Of a DNA stretch of 64,000 bases, positions 7,255-39,567 are shown one piece after another (the first letter of the stretch is position 1; each line of letters opens with the position of its first letter). This stretch comes from an uncultured Acidobacteriota bacterium (lineage in GTDB: Bacteria > Acidobacteriota > Terriglobia > Acidiferrales > UBA7541). The notes below the pieces were generated by a model. The model did no database searches and had not been told where the DNA came from. It was given only the letters and a program-made list of their open reading frames with translations. The translations under genes and the position numbers were made by a program. The stretch is from positions 78,163 to 142,162 of the forward strand of contig CAWDMQ010000002.1 of assembly GCA_963803515.1 (NCBI GenBank). The letters run 5' to 3'.

Positions 7255-7538
7255 CGAAATTAGGACACTAGCGGGAATCTACTCTTGTTGACACTGTGGC
7301 GCGAGGACCGATACAGTAGGGAGCGCGTGGAATGATACGAGAAGGGGCACTGCAACGCTGAACCGATTCGAGCATGACGGGTGCGAATTAGATTGGTGAG
7401 CCGCAAGATGCGCTACATGGGTAAAATAGCCGGGACTTGTTCGAAGCGCACGCGAATTACGCCGCCCCTTACGGGGGCGTGGGTATTTTCTGGCGCGGGG
7501 TGCGGCTAGACGGAGATAAAGCCAGCAAGCATCTCGAT

Positions 7539-7573
7539 CCCGCCGCCAGAAAACGACTGGCAGGCGGGTTTTT
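7539..7573 (+). terminator. intrinsic terminator
   Basis: CCCGCC(G)CCAG-7 nt loop-CTGG(CA)GGCGGG followed by TTTTT. It lies 285 nt after the islet gene and 120 nt before asd. Confidence 0.65.
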
Positions 7574-7692
7574 CATTTTATGAAGTGAGATGTGTCCGGC
7601 CGGGTGCTGCGTCGCCTGCACGCGGCGCAACGTTGCAGCAGCAATTTCAGAAAGAATTTCAGACTTACAGCAGCAATTCAGACAAGGATGGT

Positions 7693-8832
7693 ATGGCGCA
7701 AATGACACCGCAAATGAAAGCGAAAATGGCGGGCGACGAAAAATGGCGAGTGGGAATTCTGGGCGCAACCGGTGCCGTGGGCCAGCAGATGATTCAATTG
7801 CTGGCGGAGCATCCCTGGTTCACGATTGCGGAACTGGGCGCGTCGGAGCGTTCGGCGGGCAAGCCCTACCGCACGGCGGTGCATTGGAACCTGAACGGCT
7901 CGTTTCCGAGCAGCGTGGGTAACCTGGTGGTCAAGGCTGCCGCGCCGCCACTCGATTGCGATTTCGTGCTGTCCGCACTGGATTCGGGCGTGGCTGGGCC
8001 CATTGAAGAGGAATTCGCGCGCGCGGGCTATCCGGTCATCAGCAACAGCAAGAACCATCGCATGGCGGAAGACGTGCCGCTGGTAATACCGGAAATAAAC
8101 GCGGATCATCTCGATCTGATCGCGACGCAGCGGTCGCGGCGCGGATTTACCAGCGGCTATCTGGTGACGAATCCGAATTGCTCGACGGTAGGGCTGGCGA
8201 TGGCACTCGCTCCGCTCGATCGGGCTTTCGGGATCGCGGAAGTGTTCGTGGTTACGATGCAGGCGATATCGGGGGCGGGGTACCCCGGCGTGGCGTCACT
8301 CGACATACTGGACAACGTCATCCCGCACATCGGCGGAGAGGAAGAAAAAGTCCAGACGGAGCCGCGCAAAATTCTCGGCCGCCTGGCTGACGGAGCGGTG
8401 ACATTTTCGGAGATGAAGGTGAGCGCACACTGCAACCGCGTGCACGTTCTGGATGGCCACACGCAATCGGTGAGCGTTCGTCTGCGCAGGAAAGCCTCGA
8501 TTGCGGAAGTGCGCAACGCTCTTTCCTCGTTTACGGGCGAGCCGCAGAAGCTGCGTCTGCCATCGGCTCCCGAACACCCGATCGTGGTTACTGAAGATCC
8601 GGACCGGCCGCAGCCACGTCGGGATCGGGATGCGGGGCGGGGCATGTCGGTGGTGGTCGGACGCATCCGGCCCGATGAAATCATGGACTTCAAGTTCACG
8701 TTGTTGGTGCACAACACGATTCGAGGCGCCGCCGGGGCGGCCATCCTGAATGCGGAACTGCTGGCGCAACGCAGCGAGTTGCCGCACCGGGACCGCGTAG
8801 AACAGGGCGTTACGGCGGGACATTCTGCGTAG
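7693..8832 (+). CDS. asd: aspartate-semialdehyde dehydrogenase
   Basis: VGILGATGAVGQ Rossmann start, the active-site region NPNCSTV, and QAISGAGY. Start chosen at ATG 7693 (AAGGA 5 nt upstream); in-frame ATGs through 7726 are also possible, and the ORF opens at 7585. Confidence 0.85.
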   Translation: MAQMTPQMKAKMAGDEKWRVGILGATGAVGQQMIQLLAEHPWFTIAELGASERSAGKPYRTAVHWNLNGSFPSSVGNLVVKAAAPPLDCDFVLSALDSGVAGPIEEEFARAGYPVISNSKNHRMAEDVPLVIPEINADHLDLIATQRSRRGFTSGYLVTNPNCSTVGLAMALAPLDRAFGIAEVFVVTMQAISGAGYPGVASLDILDNVIPHIGGEEEKVQTEPRKILGRLADGAVTFSEMKVSAHCNRVHVLDGHTQSVSVRLRRKASIAEVRNALSSFTGEPQKLRLPSAPEHPIVVTEDPDRPQPRRDRDAGRGMSVVVGRIRPDEIMDFKFTLLVHNTIRGAAGAAILNAELLAQRSELPHRDRVEQGVTAGHSA

Positions 8833-27102: not shown

Positions 27103-28671
27103 ATGACCGACAGCGCCACACGTCTCACCGCGTCGAGCATGACAACCGGCGCTGCATTACGTTTACCTGATTTAGTCGGCGCGGAACACGTTCTCGTGGG
27201 GCCCGCGCTCTGCGCGCCTTACGAGGTGGATGGATGTCAGCCTGCGGCTGTCCTGCGTCCCGGTTCCGCGGAAGAGATTGCGGAGATTTTGCGTTTTGCC
27301 GCAGGGGAGCGGCTCGCGGTGATACCGATGGGCGGGCGCACTAAGGTCGCGATGGGGATGCCTCCGCAGCGGTTCGATGTGGCGCTCGATCTTTCGCGGA
27401 TGTCGCGGGTACTCGCTTACGATCCCCGAGATCTTACGTGTGGCGTGGAAGCGGGCGTGCGTTTTGCCGATCTCGCGGGACTGCTTGCGGGCGAGCGCCA
27501 ATTTCTGCCGCTGGCTCCGGCATTCGCCGCGCGCGCAACGCTGGGAGGCATTGTCGCTGCCGGCGCGGATTCGCCGCTGCGGCACGCCTATGGCAGCGCC
27601 AGGGATTATCTGCTTGGCGTCGAATTTATCACCGGGGATGCAGTACCGTCGAAAAGCGGCGGCCGCGTGGTCAAAAACGTCACCGGGTACGACCTGCATA
27701 AATTGCTGATTGGCTCGCTGGGCACGCTGGCCGTGATCACGCGATTGAATTTCCGCACATTTCCGCTGCCGCCGGAGCAAGGGACATTCGTGGCGTCATT
27801 CTCGAGCGCTGATGCGGCGCTCGGGTGGTGCGCGGCTATTGCGAAGTCTCCGCTCGAGCCGAGAATGGTCGAGGTGCTTGACTCCGGAACGGCGCGGCTA
27901 TTTGCGCAGAGCTACCGAGGATTGGCGGCTGAGGGCTGGTGCGTGGTGGTCAATGTGGCCGGGCATCGCGCCGTTGTCGAGCGTCACGCGCGCGATCTCG
28001 GGCGGCTTGCAGGCGAAAAAAAGGCGCGGGAATTTGTCAGCGTCGATGCAGCGGAACAGGGTGCTCTGTTCCGCTGCATCAGCGAGTTTCCGAGTCTGGT
28101 CCTCGAAAACTTTCCCGATGCGGCGATCTTTCGCATGGCGGTTCTGCCGTCCGCAATGCCGGAACTGCTGCGCCGGGTAGGCGAACTGTTGGAGCGCGTG
28201 CCCGTGGACACGAATGGTGAAGGGCAAACGACAGCACGCAATGCCCTGAATCGGGCAACACTGGTGCGCGCCTCGGGCGTCGTATATGTCGCGCTGCTGC
28301 CTGCGAACGACGGCGCTCATGCGGATGGTGCTGGAGGCTCGAGCGCAGGAGTTACCAGTGCTGATCGGGCTCACGGGGCTCACGGCGAGCACGGGGTACA
28401 TGTAGCCCATGAGGCCACTCGCACTGGGGATGGCGGCGAGGCGCACCTGCACCTGCTGCAAGCTTGCCGTGACTTGATGGATGTAGGCGTGGCGATGGGT
28501 GTACGGCCCGTGATCGAGCGGTGTTCGCTGGCGGTGAAGCGCGCGCTCGCGGCAGAGGGGCGATCGATCTGGCCGCCGCCCGGCGCGGAGCACGTGCTCG
28601 CCGAACGTTTGAAAAAAGTGTTTGATCCGCACGGCATTCTCGCGCCGGGCCGTTTTCAAGGAGGAATCTGA
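27103..28671 (+). CDS. glcE: glycolate oxidase subunit GlcE (FAD-binding), unusually long because of a His/Gly/Ala-rich insertion
   Basis: FAD-binding PCMH-type domain (IPMGGRTKV..., VKNVTGYDLHKLLIGSLGTLAVI), position between glcD and glcF. At 522 aa it is clearly longer than the GlcE length I recall for E. coli (about 350 aa); the insertion is ANDGAHADGAGGSS...HGAHGEHGVHVAHEA. Confidence 0.7.
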   Translation: MTDSATRLTASSMTTGAALRLPDLVGAEHVLVGPALCAPYEVDGCQPAAVLRPGSAEEIAEILRFAAGERLAVIPMGGRTKVAMGMPPQRFDVALDLSRMSRVLAYDPRDLTCGVEAGVRFADLAGLLAGERQFLPLAPAFAARATLGGIVAAGADSPLRHAYGSARDYLLGVEFITGDAVPSKSGGRVVKNVTGYDLHKLLIGSLGTLAVITRLNFRTFPLPPEQGTFVASFSSADAALGWCAAIAKSPLEPRMVEVLDSGTARLFAQSYRGLAAEGWCVVVNVAGHRAVVERHARDLGRLAGEKKAREFVSVDAAEQGALFRCISEFPSLVLENFPDAAIFRMAVLPSAMPELLRRVGELLERVPVDTNGEGQTTARNALNRATLVRASGVVYVALLPANDGAHADGAGGSSAGVTSADRAHGAHGEHGVHVAHEATRTGDGGEAHLHLLQACRDLMDVGVAMGVRPVIERCSLAVKRALAAEGRSIWPPPGAEHVLAERLKKVFDPHGILAPGRFQGGI

Positions 28672-30898: not shown

Positions 30899-31013
30899 GC
30901 GCTCCCCACAGTGAGAAAGGGCACCGGCTGGCCGGTATTGGCACGGGCGATGCCGATGAATATGACGGAGTGTATTATACCGATTGTGGGGTAGAGGAAG
31001 GCAGCGGTGCAGC

Positions 31014-32744
31014 ATGGAACCGGAACTGTTTCCATTATTTCTGAAAATTGCCGCGCGTAAGTGCCTGGTGGTGGGCGGGGGCAAAATCGCGGAAGCGAAG
31101 ATCGCCAGCCTGGTGCGATGCGGAGCGAAGGTGCGGGTGGTGGCTCCCAGCGCGACCGAGGGTATTCGCAGAGCGGCAGAGGCGGGCGCGATCACGTGGG
31201 AGAGGCGCACGTTTGCGCCGAGCGACCTTGCGGATGTTTTCATGGTGATTGCGGCGACATCGTCTCCGGAACTGCACGAGCAAATTTTCCGACAGGCGCA
31301 GCGGGATGGGATTTTGTGCAATGCGGTCGATGAACCCGAACGCTGCGATTTTTACTATCCGGCGGTGGTGCGGCGCGGAGCCTTACAGATTGCGATTTCG
31401 ACGGGCGGGCGCGCTCCTGCGCTTGCCCAGCGGTTACGGCAGGATTTGGAAGCGCAGTTCGGGGCGGCGTATGGGACGTGGGTTGAAGAACTGGGGCGCG
31501 CGCGCGGCGAATTGATGAATCAGGAGATGGTTCCTGAGGAACGACAGGAATTGCTGCGGGGGATGGTGAGCCACCGAGCGTTCGAGGTGTTCAAGCAGTC
31601 GCTGGGCAAAACGGATGCAGGGGCGGCTTTGCAAGCGAATGGCGGGGATACCGAGAACGATTCGAAGAACGATTCGCAACACGATTCTCAACTCCATGCG
31701 AAGAATGACATGGAGAGTAAGGACCACCGCGGCAAAGTTTATTTCCTCGGTGCCGGGCCGGGCGATCCGGAATTGCTGACGCGCAGGGCCTGGAAAATTC
31801 TGCGAAGCGCCGACGTGGTGTTGCACGATGCACTGGTGGCGCCCGAGGTTATAAAGCTGGCGCGGGAAGGTGCGACGGTGTGCGACGTGGGTAAGCGCTG
31901 CGGGCAGAAATCGATCACCCAGGAGGAGATACACGCGTTGATGATTGCGCATGCTTCGGAGGGGCGCACGGTAGTGCGCTTGCAGGGCGGCGATCCTCTG
32001 ATTTTTGGCCGGGCCGGTGAGGAGATGAGCGCGTTGCAGGCGGCTGGAATTAATTTCGAGATTGTGCCGGGAGTCACCGCCGCTTCGGCGGCGGCGGCGG
32101 CCGTGCGCATCCCGCTGACGGACCGGAGGCTCGCATCGACGTTGATTTTTGCCAGTGCGCACCGGCGGGCAGGGAATGCGCCAGAGAATTCCATGGACAC
32201 ACAAAATGCAGATGAGAGGGGGAGTGGCGGAGCGGCCGGAGCGGCGATGGAAGATGCCGGGGTGGGAGAGGCGGCAACCGAGGATGCTTCGGGGAATGCG
32301 GCTGGAGATACCGCGGAGAATGGGACGGGCAATGCGGCGACAATGAAGAGCGGGGCACGGCAGCGACCAAATGCGGGGCTGCCGGGTGCGTCGGTACTGG
32401 TTGCGTCGCCGAATGTTGGCGGCGCCGGTACCACGCTGGCGATCTACATGCCGGGTTTGAACTATGGCAGGATCGCGCGCGATCTGCTGGAGGCAGGCTG
32501 GGCTGCGGATACGAATTGCGTGGTTGTCTCGCAGGCTTCGACGGCGCAACAACGGGTTTGCCGCGCGCAAATCGGGTCGTTGTCTCAGGCGGAACGGTTA
32601 CCTGCGCCGGCAATACTTATCGTTGGCGACGTGGCGGGAACGGCGTTGGGGAGCGGTTCGGATCAAGCTGCACATGAAGAGAACGGCAGGCAGCCGGATG
32701 AAGGGGCAACAATCGTAACGAACGTGGCTTCTTCTATGAGGTAA
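31014..32744 (+). CDS. cysG: siroheme synthase (precorrin-2 dehydrogenase/ferrochelatase domain fused to uroporphyrinogen-III C-methyltransferase) with low-complexity insertions
   Basis: N-terminal LVVGGGKIAEAKI Rossmann motif. C-terminal SUMT motifs VYFLGAGPGDPELLT and VVRLQGGDPLIFGRAGEE. A linker with three 12-nt tandem repeats (31653-31688) and an insertion of about 60-80 aa rich in A/G/D/E/N (about 32170-32430). Confidence 0.85.
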   Translation: MEPELFPLFLKIAARKCLVVGGGKIAEAKIASLVRCGAKVRVVAPSATEGIRRAAEAGAITWERRTFAPSDLADVFMVIAATSSPELHEQIFRQAQRDGILCNAVDEPERCDFYYPAVVRRGALQIAISTGGRAPALAQRLRQDLEAQFGAAYGTWVEELGRARGELMNQEMVPEERQELLRGMVSHRAFEVFKQSLGKTDAGAALQANGGDTENDSKNDSQHDSQLHAKNDMESKDHRGKVYFLGAGPGDPELLTRRAWKILRSADVVLHDALVAPEVIKLAREGATVCDVGKRCGQKSITQEEIHALMIAHASEGRTVVRLQGGDPLIFGRAGEEMSALQAAGINFEIVPGVTAASAAAAAVRIPLTDRRLASTLIFASAHRRAGNAPENSMDTQNADERGSGGAAGAAMEDAGVGEAATEDASGNAAGDTAENGTGNAATMKSGARQRPNAGLPGASVLVASPNVGGAGTTLAIYMPGLNYGRIARDLLEAGWAADTNCVVVSQASTAQQRVCRAQIGSLSQAERLPAPAILIVGDVAGTALGSGSDQAAHEENGRQPDEGATIVTNVASSMR

Positions 32745-32879: not shown

Positions 32880-32907
32880 TTGCATTTGAATGGCTTTCAA
32901 GTATGCT
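32880..32907 (+). promoter_or_regulatory. candidate sigma70-type promoter of the sbp-cysTWA leader
   Basis: TTGCAT (32880-32885), 16-nt spacer, TATGCT (32902-32907). Confidence 0.45.
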
Positions 32908-32926
32908 TGAGCCCGTGAAACTGCAT

Positions 32927-32998
32927 ATGTCGCAAGCCTGCGCGTGTTGTACCCCCTGTTGCCGTTGTGTGTCTTCTGGCGCGAAGGGGCTGACCTAG
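32927..32998 (+). CDS. Cys-rich leader ORF (23 aa) upstream of sbp
   Basis: ATG 32927 to TAG 32998 gives MSQACACCTPCCRCVSSGAKGLT, with 6 Cys codons among codons 5-14. It is homologous to the small ORF upstream of sat. Confidence 0.6.
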   Translation: MSQACACCTPCCRCVSSGAKGLT

Positions 32999-33025
32999 AA
33001 AATTTATCCAAATCAGCGCTCCTTG

Positions 33026-33070
33026 AACCCACCGCCAGAGACGATCTGGGAGGTGGGTTTTTTGTTGTTG
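33026..33070 (+). terminator. intrinsic terminator (attenuator) in the sbp leader
   Basis: AACCCACCGCCAGA-GACGA-TCTGGGAGGTGGGTT followed by TTTTTTGTTGTT, 70 nt upstream of the sbp start. Confidence 0.75.
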
Positions 33071-33140
33071 GGGCATTTTCATGGGACAGGAACGCCGATG
33101 AAGCAGGAACGGCCAAGCACGAACAGGAGAGCGAGAACCC

Positions 33141-34160
33141 GTGAGCGTTAAAAAAATTGTTTTTGCAGCGACTGGAGTCGCGGCGCTAATTTCCCTGTTC
33201 GTTTTTGCCAAGCCATCGGGCAGCAATGCCACACTCCTCAACGTCTCCTACGATCCAACGCGAGAGTTTTACAAGGATTTCAATACGGCGTTCGCCGTGG
33301 CGTGGAAAGCGAAAACCGGCCAGGCAGTGACCGTAAACCAGTCACATGGTGGTTCGGGTACTCAGGCGCGCGCGGTGATCGACGGTTTGCAGGCGGATAT
33401 TGTGACGCTGGCGCTGGCCTACGACATTGACTCGATTGCCGAGCGCGCGAAATTGCTGCCTGCCGACTGGCAGGCGCGCCTGCCGGATCACAGCACACCG
33501 TATACCTCCACCGTGGTGTTTTTGGTGCGCAAGGGCAATGCCAAGCAAATCAAGGATTGGGACGATCTGGTGAGGCCCGGCGTGAGCGTGATTACCGCGA
33601 ATCCCAAAACGTCAGGCGGAGCGCGCTGGAACTACATGGCTGCGTGGGGTTACGCGTTGCAGAAAAATGGCGGGACGGAAGCGACGGCGAAGGGTTTCAT
33701 CGCCACGCTTTACAAAAATGTGCCGGTGCTCGACAGCGGATCGCGGGGCGCGACCGATACGTTTGTACAGCGGGGAATCGGTGATGTTTTGATTGCCTGG
33801 GAAAATGAAGCCAAGCTGGCCATCAAGGAATCGGGCGGAGATAAGTTTCAAATTGTGGTGCCTTCCATCAGCATTCTGGCGGAGCCTCCCGTCAGCATTG
33901 TCGATAAAAATGTGGACCGGCACGGCACGCGCGCGATGGCCCAGGCGTATCTCGAGTATCTGTACACGCCGGAAGGACAGGAAATCGCGGCGCGTAATTT
34001 CTATCGTCCGCGCCTGAAGGCCGTGGCCGACAAGTATGCCGCGCAATTTCCGCAGCTGAAATTGTTCAGCATCGATCAGTTTGGCGGGTGGCAGAAAGTA
34101 CAGAAAATGCATTTTTCGGATGGCGGGGTTTTCGATCAGATTTATCAGCCGGCGCGTTAG
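33141..34160 (+). CDS. sbp: sulfate/thiosulfate ABC transporter substrate-binding protein
   Basis: Signal peptide followed by Sbp/CysP family sequence ([35 protein letters not shown]). AGGAGA 11 nt before the GTG start. Confidence 0.9.
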
Positions 34161-34268
34161 CGCGGAAAATCGCACGCGTGATGGCCTTAAGGGTTCTTGG
34201 TTCGATGGGCGAGTGAATGCCCAATGAATGCTGAATGAGTGAAGGTCAGCCGATGAAGGTGGAAGGTA

Positions 34269-35147
34269 ATGGGGCTGCGGCTAAAAAAACAAAGCGTGCT
34301 GCCGGGGTTTGGCCTGGCGATGGGCTGGACGGTGTTCTACCTGTGCCTGATCGTTCTGATTCCACTGAGCACGATTTTCATGAAATCCGCTTCCATGGGG
34401 TGGACCGCTTTCTGGCAAGTCATCAGCAGTCCCCGAGCGCTGGCGAGTTACCGGCTGAGTGTGGGAGCTTCGCTGATCGCGGCCGCCATCAATGGTTTTT
34501 TCGGGATGCTCGTGGCGTGGGTGTTGGTGCGCTACCGGTTTCCCGGACGGCGACTGCTCGACGGATTGGTGGATCTTCCCTTCGCGCTGCCCACGGCGGT
34601 GGCCGGCATCGTGCTGACCACGATTTATTCGCAAAACGGGTGGGTGGGGGGCCAGCTAGCGAAAATTGGGATCAAGGTGGCCTACACACCGCTGGGCGTA
34701 ATCGTGGCGCTGACATTCATCGGCCTGCCGTTTGTGGTACGAACCATTCAGCCGGTATTGGAGGTGCTGGACGTGGGCGTCGAAGAGGCCGCGGCCAGCC
34801 TGGGCGCGGGGTTATGGCAGACATTCCGGCGCGTGATTCTTCCCGAACTATTTCCCGCATGGATCACCGGGGTCACGCTGGCGTTCGCCAGGTCGCTCGG
34901 CGAGTACGGGTCGGTGGTTTTTATTGCGGGAAATATGCCGATGAAAACCGAGATCACGCCGCTGCTGATTATGATCAAGCTCGATCAATTCGACTATGCG
35001 GGAGCGAGCGCGATTGCGCTGTCGTTTCTGGTGGTTTCGTTTTCGCTGCTGCTTTTGGTGAACGTAATGCAACGGCGGCAAGGTATGGCGACAGCGCTGC
35101 GGTGGTGCCGGTGTTCAGGCCTGCTGAGGAGAATTTGCACGCGATGA
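34269..35147 (+). CDS. cysT: sulfate ABC transporter permease CysT
   Basis: Six-TM MetI-type permease with the EAA loop ([21 protein letters not shown]). Second gene of the sbp operon. Confidence 0.9.
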
Positions 35148-35154
35148 GAGCACG

Positions 35155-36069
35155 ATGACCGGAGTGATTTCCGCGGAACTACCAGCGCGCGCGAAGGCGC
35201 CGGTGGGGGCGCGCATGCATCCCCGGTGGGTGCGCTGGCCGCTGATCGCGGTGTGCTTCGCATTCCTGGGGCTGTTTCTACTGCTGCCGCTCGCCGCGGT
35301 TTTCGCCAATGCGCTGTCGAAGGGCGCGGGGGTTTACTTTCGAGCGCTGTCCGATCCCGAAGCGCTGTCAGCCATACGGCTGACGCTGCTGACCGCGGGG
35401 ATTGCGGTTCCGCTCAACTTGATCTTTGGATTGGCCGCTTCCTGGTCCATCGCGCGTTTTGATTTTGTGGGCAAGCGCGTGCTGATTACGCTGATCGACG
35501 TACCGTTCAGTGTTTCGCCGGTGATTTCGGGCATGGTGTTCGTGCTGCTGTTTGGCGCGCAGGGAGTGTTTGGGCGTTGGCTGATTGACCGCGATATCCA
35601 CATCGTTTTTGCTGTTCCCGGACTGATCCTGGCGACCACGTTCGTTACGTTTCCGTATATCGCCAGAGAACTGATACCCACCATGCAGACGCTGGGAAGC
35701 GAGGAAGAGGAAGCGGCGCTCACGCTCGGAGCGAGCGGCTGGAGCACGTTTTTTCGTATCACGCTTCCGAACGTCAAGTGGAGCCTGCTATACGGCGTCA
35801 TTTTGTGCAACGCGCGGGCGATGGGCGAATTTGGCGCGGTTTCGGTCGTGTCGGGCCACATTCGCGGCCTGACGGATACCATGCCGCTGTACATCGAAAT
35901 TCTCTACAACGACTACCAATTTTCCGCGGCTTTTGCGGTTGCTTCGCTGCTGGCGATTCTGGCGCTGGTGACACTCATCGCCAAGTCCATCGTGGAGTGG
36001 AAGTCCGAAGTGGAAGTTCCAGAAATACAAAAGCTGCCGGCCGAGTATGCCCCGGGGGATGCGTCATGA
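35155..36069 (+). CDS. cysW: sulfate ABC transporter permease CysW
   Basis: MetI-type permease with [21 protein letters not shown]. Its stop overlaps the cysA start (ATGA). Confidence 0.9.
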
Positions 36070-37103
36070 GCATCGAAATTCGCAACGTATCGAAACGATT
36101 TGGACAATTTGAAGCGCTGAAGGACGTCGATCTGCTGATTCCGGATGGCGAGCTGGTGGCCTTGCTGGGACCGTCGGGATCGGGAAAGACGACCTTGCTG
36201 CGCATCATTGCGGGCCTTGATTTTCCGGATCGCGGTGAGGTGGTGTTCGATGGACAGGAAAGCACCAATCGGAAAGCGCGGGAACGCGGCGTGGGGTTTG
36301 TGTTTCAGCATTATTCGTTGTTCCGGCACATGACGGTTTTCGATAACATCGCGTTTGGGTTGAGTGTGAAGCCGAGGAGTACGCGGCCATCCAAAGAGCA
36401 GATCAGCTCGAAGGTTCACGAGTTGCTGCGGCTGGTGCAGCTCGATTCGCTGGCCAACCGTTATCCTTCGCAGCTTTCGGGCGGCCAGCGGCAACGCGTG
36501 GCGCTCGCTCGGGCACTGGCGGTCGAGCCCAAGGTGCTGCTGCTGGATGAGCCCTTTGGGGCGCTGGACGCCAAAGTACGCAAGGAACTGCGTTCCTGGC
36601 TGCGCCGGCTGCACGATGATATTCATGTGACCAGCGTTTTTGTGACCCACGACCAGGAAGAGGCGCTGGAAGTGGCGGACCGGATTGTGGTGATGAACCA
36701 GGGGCGGGTGGTGCAGCAGGGCGCTCCGGAAACGGTTTACCATGAGCCGGCGAATGCGTTCGTCTACAATTTTCTTGGCAGCCTGAATTTGTTTCATGCG
36801 CGGGTGGAAAATGGGGACACGTTTATCGGCGATCCCGCGGCCAGTTCGGCTTCGGCTGGAAAAACGCCCATGGTTTACGTGCGGCCTCACCTGATGCACA
36901 TCGAGCGGTATCCCTTCAGTCAGAATCATTTTCCTGGGAGGATCGTGCACATCAATCCGGCGGGGCCTATCGTGAAACTGGAACTCGAGACCGAGCGCGG
37001 CCACACGATTCAGGTGGAGCTGTCTCACGACCGTTTTCAGGAGCTGCGGTTGTTGAAAGACGATACGGTGTTCGTCAGCCCGCTGGAAATGAGAGTCTTC
37101 TAA
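36066..37103 (+). CDS. cysA: sulfate ABC transporter ATP-binding protein CysA
   Basis: Walker [10 protein letters not shown], signature LSGGQRQR, Walker B LLLDEP and a C-terminal TOBE-like regulatory domain. Start at ATG 36066 (MSIEIRNV); the ORF opens at 35778 inside cysW. Confidence 0.9.
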
Positions 37104-37169
37104 GCGGCAGGGGTTCGTAGCAGAAGTTCGCGCAGCGATGGCTGCACAGCGATTGCTCGTGCAAAGCAA

Positions 37170-37210
37170 AATAAAAAGAGCCTGGCTCGATCGCCAGGCT
37201 CTTTTTATTT
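37170..37210. terminator. bidirectional intrinsic terminator shared by the convergent cysA and cysH genes
   Basis: AAAATAAAAA-GAGCCTGGC-TCGATC-GCCAGGCTC-TTTTTATTT. The A-run and T-run flanks allow termination in both directions. Confidence 0.8.
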
Positions 37211-37235
37211 GCCTGCGTTTTGAATGCGGGTGCGG

Positions 37236-37931
37236 CTATTCCTTGACGTGCAGGCCGCATTCGGTTTTGTTGAATCCAGACCAGCGCCCGGCGCGGGGAT
37301 CTTCGCCCGGCTGCACGGGACGCGTGCAGTAGGTGCAGCCGATGCTGGGATAATTCTGATCGTGCAGGGGATTATAGGGCACGCTGTTTTCGCGGATGTA
37401 ATCCCACACCTGGGCGGAAGTCCAGTCGGCCAGCGGATTGAGTTTTACCAAGCCGAATTTCGCGTCCCACTCGAGTTTTTTTGTGTTGGCACGGGTGGGA
37501 GCCTGATCGCGGCGAACTCCCGTAACCCAGGCCCGCAGCCCCGACAGGTGTTTCTTCAGCGGCTCGACTTTACGCACGTTGCAGCATTGATCGGGATGCG
37601 AGGCCCACAATGCGGGGCCGAACTTGTCAGCCTGCGCCTCGGGGGTGAACTCCGGGCGAGTGCGCTCGACTTCGAGGCCGTACTGCTTTTCTACGCCTTC
37701 GATCAGCGCGTAGGTTTCGGGGAAAAGGAAATCGGTGTCCAGTGTGAACACTCGAAACTTTTTGCCCAGGCGTGCTGCGAGGTCGATCAGCACGACGTCC
37801 TCGGCGCCAAAACTGGAGGCCACGCCCAGCGTCTGGTCAAATTGCGACAGTCCCCATTGCAAGGCCTGGCCCGGGTTCCAACTCTCTGCTTCCGCTTGCA
37901 ACTCGATCACCTGCTGTTCGCGCGCGTCCAT
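37236..37931 (-). CDS. cysH: assimilatory adenylylsulfate (APS)/PAPS reductase, Fe-S cluster type
   Basis: PAPS_reduct fold, C-terminal ECGLH, plus the CC...CxxC cluster ligand pattern (DQCCNVRKVEPL, SIGCTYCT) typical of APS-specific enzymes. No APS kinase gene is present in the locus. Confidence 0.85.
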   Translation of the reverse strand: MDAREQQVIELQAEAESWNPGQALQWGLSQFDQTLGVASSFGAEDVVLIDLAARLGKKFRVFTLDTDFLFPETYALIEGVEKQYGLEVERTRPEFTPEAQADKFGPALWASHPDQCCNVRKVEPLKKHLSGLRAWVTGVRRDQAPTRANTKKLEWDAKFGLVKLNPLADWTSAQVWDYIRENSVPYNPLHDQNYPSIGCTYCTRPVQPGEDPRAGRWSGFNKTECGLHVKE

Positions 37932-38020
37932 GCATTCCTCCCGGAGTTAAACTTTACGATTTTTTCTAAGTGCGAATAGGTTGCTGCACGAGTTCAACGG
38001 CCTCGACTGCGCTCGATATT

Positions 38021-39262
38021 TCAATGGTATCGACTGGGCTCGACGGGTTGAACGGGCTCACGGGCCTCCCGCGCCGCGTCGGACAAGATGGCCGCGATTT
38101 CCGGGCGCGTGAATTCCACGGGGAGCGGCAGGCCTTCCCGCAGGCGGCGCCGCACTTCCGTGCCGCTCAGTATCAAGTGATCCGATACGGGGTGAGCGCA
38201 GGTGCGGTTGCTGGCCATCGAGCTGCAGCGGCGGCAGTAGAAAATTTCGTTGAAACAGATGGGTTCGATTCCCAGACCCTCGCTGGCGAGAGAGCGAAGC
38301 AGATGCTGGGCATCGAATGCGCCGTAATAACCGCCCATGCCGGCATGATCGCGGCCCACCAGGAAATGGGTGCAGCCGAAATTTCTGCGCACGACCGCGT
38401 GCAGGACGGCTTCGCGAGGACCGCCATAGCGCATCCAGGCGGGGAGCACGGCAAACAGGACGTTTTGACGCGGCAAATACTCGTTCAGGAGTGCCTGGTA
38501 ACAGCGCATGCGCACGTCGGCGGGGATGTCCTCGGGACGGGTTTCGCCGACCAGCGGATGGAGCAGCAGGCCGTCGGTGACTTCGAGTGCGGTGCGCAAT
38601 ACGTATTCGTGAGCGCGATGCACGGGGTTGCGTGTTTGAAAGCCGGCCACGGTCTTCCACCCGCGCTGCGCCATGGCGGCACGCGTTTCACGAGGAGTGA
38701 GCCAGTGTTCATCAAGGCCCAGCGCCGCGGTATCGCCAAACCATTCGATTTTGCCTGCGAGCGAAACGTCGCCCCCGCTCAAGAAACCCGCGACGCCAGG
38801 GTGGGCCGCTTCGGGGGTGCCGAACAGCTTCTTCGCCCAGTCGAGTTGCGGGATTGCGAATGACTCTTCGAAGTGGAGAATGGCGAGTGGCTGACCATTA
38901 TATTTGAGCGTGACATCAGTGTGCGGCCGCAGGGCTTTGGCATTCGCGGCCTCGGTCTGCAGGAGGATGGGGAACGGCCAGACCTTCCCATCGGGCAAAC
39001 GCATATTTTCAACGATGCCGGCCGACGTCTGGAAATCGGTGAAGCCTTCGAGGGGGCTGAAGGCGCCGGTGGCGAGGAGTAGCAGGTCGCTCGCGGCGCG
39101 GGAATTCAATTCGACGGCGGGCAGATGGGCGGCGCGGGCGATGGTCTCCGGTTGAGCTTCCTTGGGAACGACGCGATCAACCAAGTTATCCGTGCGCAAG
39201 TTATTCGTATGGGTGTTGGTATTGCTCTGGGTGTCAGCGGGATTTGCGGATACGGTTTCCAT
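38021..39262 (-). CDS. sat: sulfate adenylyltransferase (ATP sulfurylase)
   Basis: QTRNPVHRAHEY and VGRDHAG motifs, with a PUA-like N-terminal domain. GGAGA 12 nt before ATG 39262. Confidence 0.9.
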   Translation of the reverse strand: METVSANPADTQSNTNTHTNNLRTDNLVDRVVPKEAQPETIARAAHLPAVELNSRAASDLLLLATGAFSPLEGFTDFQTSAGIVENMRLPDGKVWPFPILLQTEAANAKALRPHTDVTLKYNGQPLAILHFEESFAIPQLDWAKKLFGTPEAAHPGVAGFLSGGDVSLAGKIEWFGDTAALGLDEHWLTPRETRAAMAQRGWKTVAGFQTRNPVHRAHEYVLRTALEVTDGLLLHPLVGETRPEDIPADVRMRCYQALLNEYLPRQNVLFAVLPAWMRYGGPREAVLHAVVRRNFGCTHFLVGRDHAGMGGYYGAFDAQHLLRSLASEGLGIEPICFNEIFYCRRCSSMASNRTCAHPVSDHLILSGTEVRRRLREGLPLPVEFTRPEIAAILSDAAREAREPVQPVEPSRYH

Positions 39263-39351
39263 TCTTCTGTGGTCTCCGTGATGAATGCGATTGAGAATCG
39301 TCTTGCGTTATAACGCGATCTTGCTGATGGCAGCCACCCTTGCAGGCGGCC

Positions 39352-39394
39352 AAAAACAAAAAACCCACCGGCCGGTTTTTCCTTTGGCGGTGGG
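39352..39394 (-). terminator. intrinsic terminator (attenuator) in the sat-cysH leader
   Basis: Minus strand CCCACCGCC-AAAGGAAAAACC-GGCCGGTGGG followed by TTTTTTGTTTTT, 90 nt upstream of the sat start. Confidence 0.75.
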
Positions 39395-39428
39395 CTCAAA
39401 CTGATGCTTTGAATTCGGAGCTAGTTCG

Positions 39429-39524
39429 TCACCTCGCCTTGCCAGAGGATGCCGCCAGACAGCGACAACAGGCGCAACACGAACCCGGACAGCGGTTGCA
39501 GGACTTGGTAAGGTGAAGAAACAT
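39429..39524 (-). CDS. Cys-rich leader ORF (31 aa) upstream of sat
   Basis: Minus-strand ATG 39524 to TGA 39429 gives MFLHLTKSCNRCPGSCCACCRCLAASSGKAR, with 7 Cys codons. It shares the core CC-x-CCRC-[VL]..SSG.K with the sbp leader ORF. Confidence 0.6.
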   Translation of the reverse strand: MFLHLTKSCNRCPGSCCACCRCLAASSGKAR

Positions 39525-39537
39525 CGTTGCGAAGTCT

Positions 39538-39567
39538 AAGATAGCGTTGGGCGTAAGTCAAGGTCAA
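39538..39567 (-). promoter_or_regulatory. candidate sigma70-type promoter of the sat-cysH leader
   Basis: Minus strand TTGACC (39567-39562), 18-nt spacer, TATCTT (39543-39538). The small-ORF ATG is 14 nt downstream of the -10. Confidence 0.45.

Follow-up and report, generated by a model that had tools for sequence, protein, structure and literature searches.

Cysteine-codon leaders with predicted transcription attenuators bracket the sulfate assimilation genes of an acidobacterium

Two leaders at the sulfate assimilation locus

The DNA analysed here is a 64-kb stretch (the window) of contig CAWDMQ010000002.1 from an uncultured Acidobacteriota bacterium. It carries two convergent operons, sbp-cysTWA on the plus strand and sat-cysH on the minus strand, which serve sulfate uptake and assimilatory sulfate reduction and share one bidirectional intrinsic terminator. 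Each operon is preceded by a leader, which consists of a short, cysteine (Cys)-rich open reading frame (ORF) on the same strand and of a further intrinsic terminator located between this ORF and the first structural gene. These two leaders, leader 1 before sbp and leader 2 before sat, and the family of elements to which they belong are the subject of this work. The features of the window are listed in Table 1; relatives and metagenome loci carry L numbers. A first-pass annotation of the window had described the small ORFs, their Cys clusters, nucleotide blocks shared by the leaders, the terminators, and the convergence of the operons on a common terminator, and all of these were found where it had placed them.

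Promoter-like sites were recognized in front of both leader ORFs. The predicted promoter of leader 1 is kept in the orthologues L074 and L076, and the sequence GTGAAAC of this leader is conserved, in frame, in the same two contigs. At leader 2, CTTGACTTA plus a TAnAnT -10 hexamer is conserved in L074-L076, and TTGACC/TATCTT is an alternative promoter-like pair. No Shine-Dalgarno sequence was found ahead of either leader start in the window. In the family described below, the first in-frame start codon is located 6-7 nucleotides (nt) past the -10 hexamer in 35 of the 61 members with a sigma-70-like predicted promoter, and within 10 nt of the predicted -10 in all but two of the 61. This spacing suggests that the leader ORFs are leaderless or nearly so.

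Table 1. Coordinates of the leaders, the genes and the related features in the window
Feature	Coordinates	Strand	Remarks
Leader 1, promoter-like site	32880-32907	+	-35 TTGCAT (32880-32885), 16-nt spacer, -10 TATGCT (32902-32907); read from the sequence
Leader 1, ORF	ATG 32927-32998; 32915-32998 from in-frame GTG	+	encodes MSQACACCTPCCRCVSSGAKGLT; stop TAG 32996-32998; 6 Cys in 23 residues; GTG 32915 is 7 nt past the -10 hexamer
Leader 1, regulatory Cys codons	32939-32968	+	6 Cys in 10 codons, 4 of them UGU
Leader 1, region 2 (proposed antiterminator 5' strand)	32971-32989	+	GUCUUCUGGCGCGAAGGGG, encoding ..SSGAKG
Leader 1, stop-codon hairpin	32988-33019	+	GGCUGA...UCAGC; holds the shared blocks TGAC..CTAG and ATCAG
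Leader 1, intrinsic terminator	33028-33063	+	5' arm CCCACCGCCAGAG (33028-33040), 3' arm CUGGGAGGUGGG (33046-33057), U6; -18.9 kcal/mol
sbp	33141-34160	+	sulfate-binding protein; first gene of the sulfate ABC transporter operon behind leader 1
cysT	34235/34269-35158	+	named from position alone
cysW	35155-36069	+	
cysA	36066-37103	+	operon sbp-cysT-cysW-cysA, 33141-37103
Bidirectional intrinsic terminator common to both operons	37168-37210		A-run, GAGCCUGGC/GCCAGGCUC stem, T-run
cysH	37931-37236	-	PAPS/APS reductase; same operon as sat
sat	39262-38021	-	ATP sulfurylase; first gene of the operon behind leader 2
Leader 2, intrinsic terminator	39394-39358	-	5' arm CCCACCGCCAAAGG (39394-39381), 3' arm CCGGCCGGUGGG (39375-39364), U6; -15.2 kcal/mol
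Leader 2, hairpin directly past stop codon	39428-39397	-	CGAACU...AGUUUG
Leader 2, region 2	39448-39430	-	CCUCUGGCAAGGCGAGGUG, encoding SSGKAR, overlapping the UGA stop
Leader 2, Cys codons	39500-39459	-	7 Cys (5 UGU) in an ORF of 31 residues
Leader 2, ORF	39524-39429	-	encodes MFLHLTKSCNRCPGSCCACCRCLAASSGKAR, then stop
Leader 2, promoter-like site	39567-39533	-	-35 TTGACT (39561-39556), -10 TAGACT (39538-39533), 8 nt before ATG
cysG	30984-32744		siroheme synthase; upstream of leader 1
Third scaffold copy	7417-7573	+	upstream of asd (7693-8832); ORF 7417-7509 encodes MGKIAGTCSKRTRITPPLTGAWVFSGAGCG, then stop; not Cys-rich
Third copy, region 2	7486-7500	+	UUUUCUGGCGCGGGG, same region 2 as in the Cys leaders
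Third copy, terminator	7539-7573	+	CCCGCCGCCAG...CUGGCAGGCGGGU5

Similarity between the two leaders

The alignment of the leaders that had been made by eye agrees with the family alignment. The blocks singled out in it (CGTGTTG..CCTGTTG.CG.TG, TCTGGC, AAGG.G, TGAC..CTAG, ATCAG and CCCACCGCCA...GGTGGGTTTTTTGTT) are all present in the pairwise alignment of the leaders, and occupy the same columns in an alignment of 90 family sequences. When similarity was compared with shuffled controls, the terminator parts were clearly above chance (score 48 versus 15.3 ± 2.8; 0 of 5000 dinucleotide shuffles), whereas the ORF parts alone were so only weakly (23 versus 16.0 ± 2.9; 145 of 5000 shuffles, p about 0.03). 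For the whole part preceding the terminator, 54 of 2000 shuffles reached the observed score. With similarity as weak as this, homology upstream of the terminator is not proven by the two copies alone.

A profile hidden Markov model was trained on 80 metagenome copies, to the exclusion of the window and of L074-L079. It matched leader 1 with an E value of 1.9e-22 and leader 2 with 5.2e-18, and after removal of the terminator columns it still matched both (6.2e-9 and 1.6e-3, respectively), showing that the two leaders are members of one family. A covariance model gave 96.1 bits for leader 1 and 83.8 bits for leader 2, both sequences being inside its training set. The argument of the first-pass annotation that a duplicated element is hard to dismiss as chance is therefore weak for the pair on its own, but strong once the relatives are added, and its description of the sulfate module as bracketed by two copies of one control element was correct. 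In a scan of the 28-44 kb part of the window against Rfam 15, neither leader had a match at E ≤ 10; there were only sub-threshold terminator-like matches around 37.1-37.4 kb and a weak FinP match at 28015.

Distribution of the element

Acidobacterial relatives were chosen through the closest ATP-sulfurylase homologues (62-85 per cent identity); their names, Candidatus Acidoferrales/Acidiferrales, place them in Acidobacteriota, class Terriglobia. A search of genome contigs with Sat as query returned only distant phyla (Chloroflexota, Planctomycetota and others, 43-59 per cent identity). The contigs L074-L076 are syntenic, and L077-L084 are rearranged. A Cys-rich ORF with a terminator stands before the sat-containing operon in every acidobacterial relative examined (seven, including L074-L079; for example MQKHSQACACCTCCCPCVSSGVEGLRN, MFGHTNKIATCCACLCCRCCACCRCLAALCGEVR and MNDQIQKTACCCGVVCCCIMCCCAPCCCMPASSGGILTS, each followed by its stop), and the sole relatives that reach the upstream region of sbp, L074 and L076, have a leader and a terminator there too. 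In L078 the sat-containing operon begins with sulfite reductase, and this contig has two sulfite-reductase genes, each with its own leader.

Metagenome contigs were scanned with the terminator pattern CCCACCGCC-N10-22-GGTGGGTTTTT, which yielded at least 124 matches in at least 120 stretches. The counts that follow are those among the matches listed. In about 90 of the 124, a Cys-rich ORF ends 26-33 nt upstream of the terminator motif. The 83 distinct leaders have a median of 6 Cys in about 30 codons, and ..V(S/C)SGAGRL(L/G)(T/S), followed by the stop, is a recurring tail. By blastx, the first downstream gene was sulfite reductase in 34 cases, a two-domain or single-domain rhodanese-type sulfurtransferase in 24, CysH in 4 and CysG in 2; about ten genes left unassigned by blastx are CysD by their N-terminal sequence, as was confirmed for two representatives. 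The first-pass annotation had expected further copies upstream of sulfur genes. They were indeed found before sulfite reductase, but none of the matches listed stood before cysK, cysE or sulfonate transporters, and rhodanese, cysD, cysH and cysG genes were found instead. When all 2 Mb of fetched loci were searched with the family profile (nhmmer), no further Cys-type variants were detected; the search gave only reverse-strand matches to the palindromic terminator and one more threonine (Thr)-type copy, in L163.

A few Cys leaders precede genes outside this core. Singletons (L129, L086, L172, L199) include a redoxin/AhpC-domain protein, a FadL/TodX-type outer-membrane protein and a TPR/CarboxypepD_reg protein, and at L129:459 (minus strand) the leader is followed by a 209-aa protein that looks beta-carbonic-anhydrase-like by eye and has no NCBIfam match. 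These genes are candidate Cys-starvation genes. The leaders of a cysD subgroup (L089, L097, L101, L114, L131, L138, L141, L189) read M..GVCCCPHPTVTAAASCLDRKPAL up to the stop and have three consecutive Cys codons only; their terminator is the same, their tail differs, and no convincing antiterminator was identified for them.

The terminator stem, CCCACCGCC/GGCGGUGGG, hardly varies between operons, between regulons or over many contigs (in the window at 33028-33057, 39394-39364 and 7539-7568), only rare compensated variants being seen. A purine-rich, Shine-Dalgarno-like GGGGAGG in region 2 is also conserved. The invariance of the stem could be due to a three-way pairing constraint, to recent spread or to a bound factor.

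Alternative pairings of the leader RNA

Region 2, (G)UCUUCUGGCG-NN-GGG(G), which encodes V-S-S-G-x-G, is complementary to the 5' arm of the terminator (region 3), CCC-AC-CGCCAGA(G). In the alignment of 90 sequences, the 12 proposed region 2:region 3 pairs were paired in 84.6 per cent of cases, compared with 34-50 per cent if the partner was slid by 1-3 columns. The covariation score was 0.133 versus 0.092 ± 0.007 in shuffles, none of 500 shuffles reaching the observed value, and 47 double-change cells were counted where 26.5 were expected (0 of 500 shuffles). Pair switches were of the types U-A/A-U (55/6) and U-A/C-G/U-G (32/22/14), and the extension of the helix past GGCG was above all 2000 permutations.

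From the mixed MAFFT alignment of the 90 sequences, RNAalifold recovered only the invariant outer stem of the terminator because indels in the loop misalign the inner stem. Tests for the antiterminator were hence made on anchored columns, on truncated subfamily alignments and by pair counts. With sequences cut before the 3' arm, the helix between region 2 and the 5' arm was obtained in both the sulfite-reductase and the rhodanese subfamilies.

Individual folds of the window leaders were computed for the two positions of the ribosome. In the mimic of a stalled ribosome, in which the ribosome-covered part and the 3' arm were removed, region 2 paired with the 5' arm in both leaders (-22.4 and -29.6 kcal/mol); in leader 1 the partner is 33028-33040, and in leader 2 GGCGAGGUG can be read as complementary to CACC-GCC with a one-nucleotide bulge. 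In the mimic of a ribosome at the stop codon, where only the downstream RNA was folded, the terminator formed in both leaders. The shared blocks TGAC..CTAG and ATCAG proved to pair with each other in a small hairpin that encloses the stop codon, and this segment was more stable than its shuffles in 89 per cent of the 90 sequences (Wilcoxon p = 2.5e-14).

Proposed mechanism

Judged from their sequences, the leaders have the properties by which attenuators of the trp/his/thr type are recognized, and they are in no Rfam family. A short same-strand ORF is located directly upstream of the operon in both leaders, in L074-L079 and in about 90 of the matches listed; the ORF is enriched in codons of the amino acid of the controlled pathway (Cys, before sulfate uptake and reduction genes); an intrinsic terminator separates the ORF from the first structural gene; and the antiterminator, supported by covariation, is mutually exclusive with the terminator. 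We consider it likely that each leader is a ribosome-mediated transcription attenuator keyed to cysteine, that is, to Cys-tRNA, which would probably switch the sulfur genes on when cysteine is scarce.

From this anatomy we infer the following course of events, including the stalling, the timing and coupling of ribosome and polymerase, the response to cysteine in vivo and the leaderless start. Transcription would start at the start codon of the leader or a few nucleotides ahead of it, and a ribosome would translate the short ORF while RNA polymerase makes the next ~100 nt. If Cys-tRNA(Cys) is scarce, the ribosome would stall in the Cys cluster, mostly at wobble-read UGU codons, and leave region 2, (G)UCUUCUGGCG..GGGG, free at the 3' end of the ORF. 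Region 2 could then pair with the 5' arm through ~8 base pairs, a 2x2 internal loop and GGG/CCC, and this antiterminator helix would close over the small hairpin holding the stop codon. The terminator being blocked, sbp-cysTWA or sat-cysH would be transcribed. If Cys is plentiful, the ribosome would proceed to the stop codon, where, by its footprint and by unwinding, it would mask the stop hairpin together with the 3' half of region 2; the 5' arm would then pair with the 3' arm, and transcription would stop at the U-tract. UGU accounts for 9 of 13 Cys codons in the window leaders and for 350 of 546 in the family matches listed (64-69 per cent), compared with 41 of 162 (25 per cent) in the 34 long ORFs of the window. 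Slower, wobble-read codons that sharpen the stall could account for this bias, and so could a constraint by RNA structure.

Several points weigh against this interpretation. The sample was drawn with a fixed terminator pattern in which CCCACCGCC/GGUGGG was unable to vary, so that the GGCG and GGG partners were unable to vary either. The covariation comes from 4-5 pairs in related sequences, where one event may count many times. No conserved 1:2 hairpin (anti-antiterminator or pause hairpin) common to the window leaders and their orthologues was found; in folds of the naked leaders region 2 pairs with upstream sequence (UGUGUC/GGCGCG in leader 1, CACCUUACC/GGCGAGGUG in leader 2), and these pairings are not kept in orthologues. 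The UCUGGCG part of region 2 is located 18-24 nt before the stop, at the edge of the footprint of a terminating ribosome. The GGG half is 13-15 nt upstream of the stop, whose T and A columns are at least 90 per cent conserved, and masking by a ribosome at the stop codon is argued, from standard footprint geometry, only for this half and for the stop hairpin. The equilibrium fold of leader 2 still prefers the antiterminator when the 3' arm is included, so that termination in this leader would require the ribosome or be a matter of kinetics. Finally, no characterization of intrinsic termination in these Acidobacteriota was found in the literature.

The same signal could have a different output: Cys-tRNA would be sensed, but the response would be translational attenuation or Rho-dependent termination, with hairpin and U-tract playing a minor part. 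The sole experimentally studied small Cys ORFs unmask a downstream ribosome-binding site (Canestrari et al., 10.1101/834739), actinobacterial Cys leaders have no terminators (PMC1262725), and the leaders described here likewise look leaderless. We nevertheless regard such an output as unlikely, since a canonical GC-rich stem followed by at least five U stands behind every member of the family and is the best-conserved part of the alignment. Moreover, in both window operons the structural genes begin 78-96 nt beyond the U-tract, the AGGAG or GGAGA stretches that can be read ahead of sbp and sat are outside the conserved pairings, and the alternative pairing competes specifically with the 5' arm of the terminator.

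RNA structure versus peptide

Conservation in the leader ORFs goes beyond the Cys codons, for which the first-pass annotation had offered two explanations: constraint by RNA structure, TCTGGC being part of the antiterminator, or a role of the peptide itself. Pairing counts, covariation and folds of the truncated alignments support the former, and four independent lines indicate that the non-Cys conservation is a matter of RNA structure, not of the peptide. At four-fold degenerate third positions of region 2 the entropy is 0.31 (UCU) and 0.57 (GGC) bits, compared with 1.18-1.48 bits at first and second positions. Third positions being as conserved as the first and second ones, or more so, synonymous sites in the tail are not relaxed. 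Variation in region 2 is greatest at the two nucleotides of the internal loop and at the covarying positions y3-y5. In the tail, Gly can be followed by A, V, T, M, E and other residues, and residues encoded by the loop nucleotides can also be N or S.

Frame and stop can shift while the nucleotides are kept. The tails of sbp-leader orthologues end in AKGLT, VEGLRN and VEG, differing by non-synonymous changes and a frameshift; VEG arises by a 1-nt deletion that brings an out-of-frame UGA in frame, the downstream nucleotides, including the former UAG, being retained. Among the matches listed, 28 Cys leaders translate GUC(U/C)UCUGG as (V)SSG, whereas 11 leaders of the Thr/isoleucine (Ile) type described below translate it as CLL. 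Changes of the terminator are accompanied by changes of region 2 and of the peptide tail: the region 2:5' arm pairs are GUGGGUCGC:GCGGCCCAC in the second sulfite-reductase leader of L078 (tail RMEWVAWRNAL), GGGGCGG:CCGCCCC in L004 (Dehalococcoidia; tail MPDQGRRFGTI) and CCUGAAGGG:CCCUUCAGG in the Chloroflexi leaders L013 and L015 (tail TPLKGGGL). SSG, K/R and the stop context are thus conserved because region 2 and the stop hairpin are encoded inside the ORF.

A functional leader peptide, acting by nascent-chain arrest or, in cis or in trans, as a thiol- or metal-binding micropeptide, would explain the SSG-K/R tail, and there is a precedent for a leader peptide acting in trans in peTrpL (PMC7298713). 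The tail of the canonical family is strikingly regular, but its conservation tracks RNA pairing and not codon periodicity, residues encoded in the loop vary freely, and in lineages with other terminators the tails are unrelated and match the terminator of their own leader. The Cys residues themselves vary in spacing and in number (4-12 per leader among the matches listed). The Arg of CCRC, which had been regarded as conserved, is replaced in the sbp leaders of L074 and L076 (CCPC and CCLC) and varies across the family. Taking all this into account, a function of the peptide is distinctly improbable. The comparison of compensatory with synonymous changes that had been suggested to separate the two possibilities gave covarying pairs above shuffles, in favour of RNA, and no sign of peptide-level constraint. 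The observation made in the first pass was therefore confirmed and its RNA option was right, whereas the peptide option and the conserved Arg were not borne out. The leaders illustrate how RNA structure encoded inside an ORF can pass for conservation of a micropeptide, which is relevant to the annotation of small proteins.

The same scaffold with other codons

The covariance model found a third copy of the element in the window, at 7461-7581 (52.2 bits, E 2.8e-11), which was outside the training set. It is located upstream of asd (Table 1), and its terminator carries a compensated A-to-G/U-to-C change (CCCGCCGCC/GGCGGG). This copy is probably a Thr/Ile-type attenuator of the aspartate pathway, though it has few regulatory codons. 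Among the metagenome matches listed, terminator motifs that lack a Cys leader nearly always follow a Thr/Ile-rich leader peptide. Such leaders (for example MNTAIQKATRITSTGTGMSTRITCLLEDGIG, ..TTTITTIMCTTTALGDGRNG and ..KATRITSTGTGMSTRITCLLEDGIG, each up to the stop) stand before aspartate kinase (ask) in 17 cases (L098, L099, L111, L118, L128, L132, L139, L148, L162, L167, L184, L187, L188, L204 and others) and before asd in two (L137 and L176). They share the nucleotides of region 2 with the Cys leaders, but in another reading frame.

Cys-type and Thr/Ile-type copies occur together on the contigs L111, L128, L163 and L188. Taking into account that both types are present on single contigs and in the window, one chassis seems to serve at least two amino-acid regulons, and the element is not strictly sulfur-specific as a scaffold. 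It is quite possible, although we propose it tentatively, that soil Acidobacteriota use one modular chassis, (U)CUGGCG..GGG : CCCACCGCCAG : CUGGCGGUGGGU5+, with a leaderless mini-ORF, which is retargeted by swapping codons or frame. Cys codons would direct it to sbp-cysTWA, sat/cysDN, cysH, sulfite reductase, cysG and rhodanese, and Thr/Ile codons to ask and asd. If true, this would document the evolution of attenuators through duplication and recoding, and it would imply a phylum-wide 'Cys ribulon' working through classical termination. The sharing of the chassis between Cys and Thr/Ile leaders offers a tractable system for studying how attenuators originate and change specificity.

The distant contigs returned by the Sat search included three analogous Cys leaders of Chloroflexi (L004:7462-7660, L013:169-370 and L015:2060-2240, from Chloroflexota metagenome-assembled genomes; for example ..CLCCCMPDQGRRFGTI and ..CSCTCLCCCTPLKGGGLLTP, up to the stop). 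Their terminators are unrelated to the acidobacterial one, and the ORF of each leader contains a region 2 complementary to the 5' arm of the terminator that follows it. Cys-keyed attenuation thus seems to have arisen or diversified outside Acidobacteriota, too.

These leaders also bear on the question whether the element might sense a sulfur metabolite, as a riboswitch or as a leader bound by a protein, the ORF being incidental. Sulfur genes of Firmicutes are controlled by S-adenosylmethionine (SAM) riboswitches and T-boxes, and the sequences of region 2, stop hairpin and terminator are more conserved than a plain attenuator needs. However, while the RNA scaffold stays the same, the codon content of the ORF follows the pathway, with Cys codons before sulfur genes and Thr/Ile codons before ask and asd; the unrelated Chloroflexi leaders have nothing in common with the family except a Cys ORF and the matching antiterminator logic; and the Rfam scan gave no match except the terminator-like fragments at 37.1 kb. 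We therefore assign very little probability to a sensor of this kind. That the ORFs are free-standing, non-regulatory genes for small Cys-rich proteins with their own terminators, resembling each other by chance or composition, is hardly credible and already largely refuted: Cys clusters are not rare (the six-frame translation of the 64 kb has 22 ten-residue stretches holding four or more Cys) and the similarity of the two ORFs alone is weak, but only leaders 1 and 2 among these Cys-dense stretches precede the conserved terminator, the leave-out profile matches both significantly, and dozens of contigs have the element in the same place, before sulfur-assimilation operons.

Genes next to the leaders

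The terminator at 33028-33063 was also considered as merely the end of cysG. This was rejected, as it is located ~285 nt beyond the cysG stop and behind a promoter-like site, and the same element is present before sulfur genes with unrelated upstream neighbours. No Pfam family was matched by the listed ORF 34235-35158 (cysT); BPD_transp_1 is present in its L074 and L076 counterparts. The longest ORF of sat has 413 aa, compared with 386-395 aa in close orthologues. The true start may be a downstream TTG (39199 or 39184), or the ATG with an N-terminal extension; the choice has no effect on the analysis of the leader.

Comparison with known systems

Acidobacteriota are among the most abundant soil bacteria, and their gene regulation is almost unstudied. 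The elements described here predict that ribosomes stalling on Cys codons tell these bacteria whether sulfur is sufficient, and that one Cys signal coordinates sulfate uptake, activation and reduction. The family model is a ready regulon predictor for genes located behind Cys leaders.

With the classical attenuators (trpL, hisL, thrL, leuL, ilvL and pheL of E. coli/Salmonella; Trp, His, Thr and Leu leaders of Rfam) the leaders have in common an ORF rich in codons for the end product and an intrinsic terminator, one strand of which is also used by the antiterminator; the stop codon, too, may be placed as in those attenuators, so that a non-stalled ribosome would prevent the antiterminator. They differ from them in that the amino acid sensed would be cysteine, that sulfate uptake and assimilatory sulfate reduction would be controlled, and that they occur in the phylum Acidobacteriota (Terriglobia). 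Furthermore, the 5' strand of the antiterminator is inside the ORF, upstream of the stop, the ORF, which lacks a Shine-Dalgarno sequence, probably begins at the transcription start or close by, and there is no match to an Rfam leader. In the searchable literature, most subscription journals being outside it, no description was found of a terminator-type Cys attenuator or of attenuation of sulfur genes in Acidobacteriota.

The leaderless polycysteine small ORFs of mycobacteria are Cys-responsive attenuators that unmask a ribosome-binding site (Canestrari et al. 2020, 10.1101/834739; Mol Microbiol 114:93), and a 2026 paper on rifampicin resistance in M. tuberculosis also labels Cys upstream ORFs as translation attenuation (PMC13236596). 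The likeness consists in Cys-rich 5' small ORFs of cysteine and sulfur operons, several independent loci forming one Cys regulon read by the ribosome, and in the architecture, which is probably leaderless here. However, the mycobacterial ORFs belong to another phylum and have no sequence similarity to the leaders, and the element studied there lacks an intrinsic terminator, whereas terminator and covarying antiterminator are the conserved core of the acidobacterial family. This core places the leaders outside the mycobacterial translational class. In Actinobacteria, Cys leader peptides were predicted before cys and cbs operons without a conserved terminator hairpin (Seliverstov et al. 2005, PMC1262725); their mechanism was left undecided, Rho-dependence being one possibility. 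Both sets of short ORFs carry Cys codons in runs close to the stop and were predicted by comparative genomics; here, terminator and antiterminator are defined.

For Deinococcus deserti, leaderless leader peptides for transcription attenuation were predicted, including one of 10 residues with two Cys before cysS (de Groot et al. 2014, PMC4007540). The start codon at the transcription start and the proposed Cys-responsive transcription attenuation are as envisaged here. That case, from another phylum, concerns one tRNA-synthetase gene and two Cys codons; in the parts of the paper available to us, no family, antiterminator analysis or sulfate control is described. In the literature searched, earlier Cys leaders were known or predicted either without terminators (Actinobacteria) or as one predicted case (Deinococcus cysS). 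The family in soil Acidobacteriota is large and apparently undescribed; it does not represent a new principle, but with it cysteine would join the amino acids for which classical leader-peptide attenuation with a terminator is known.

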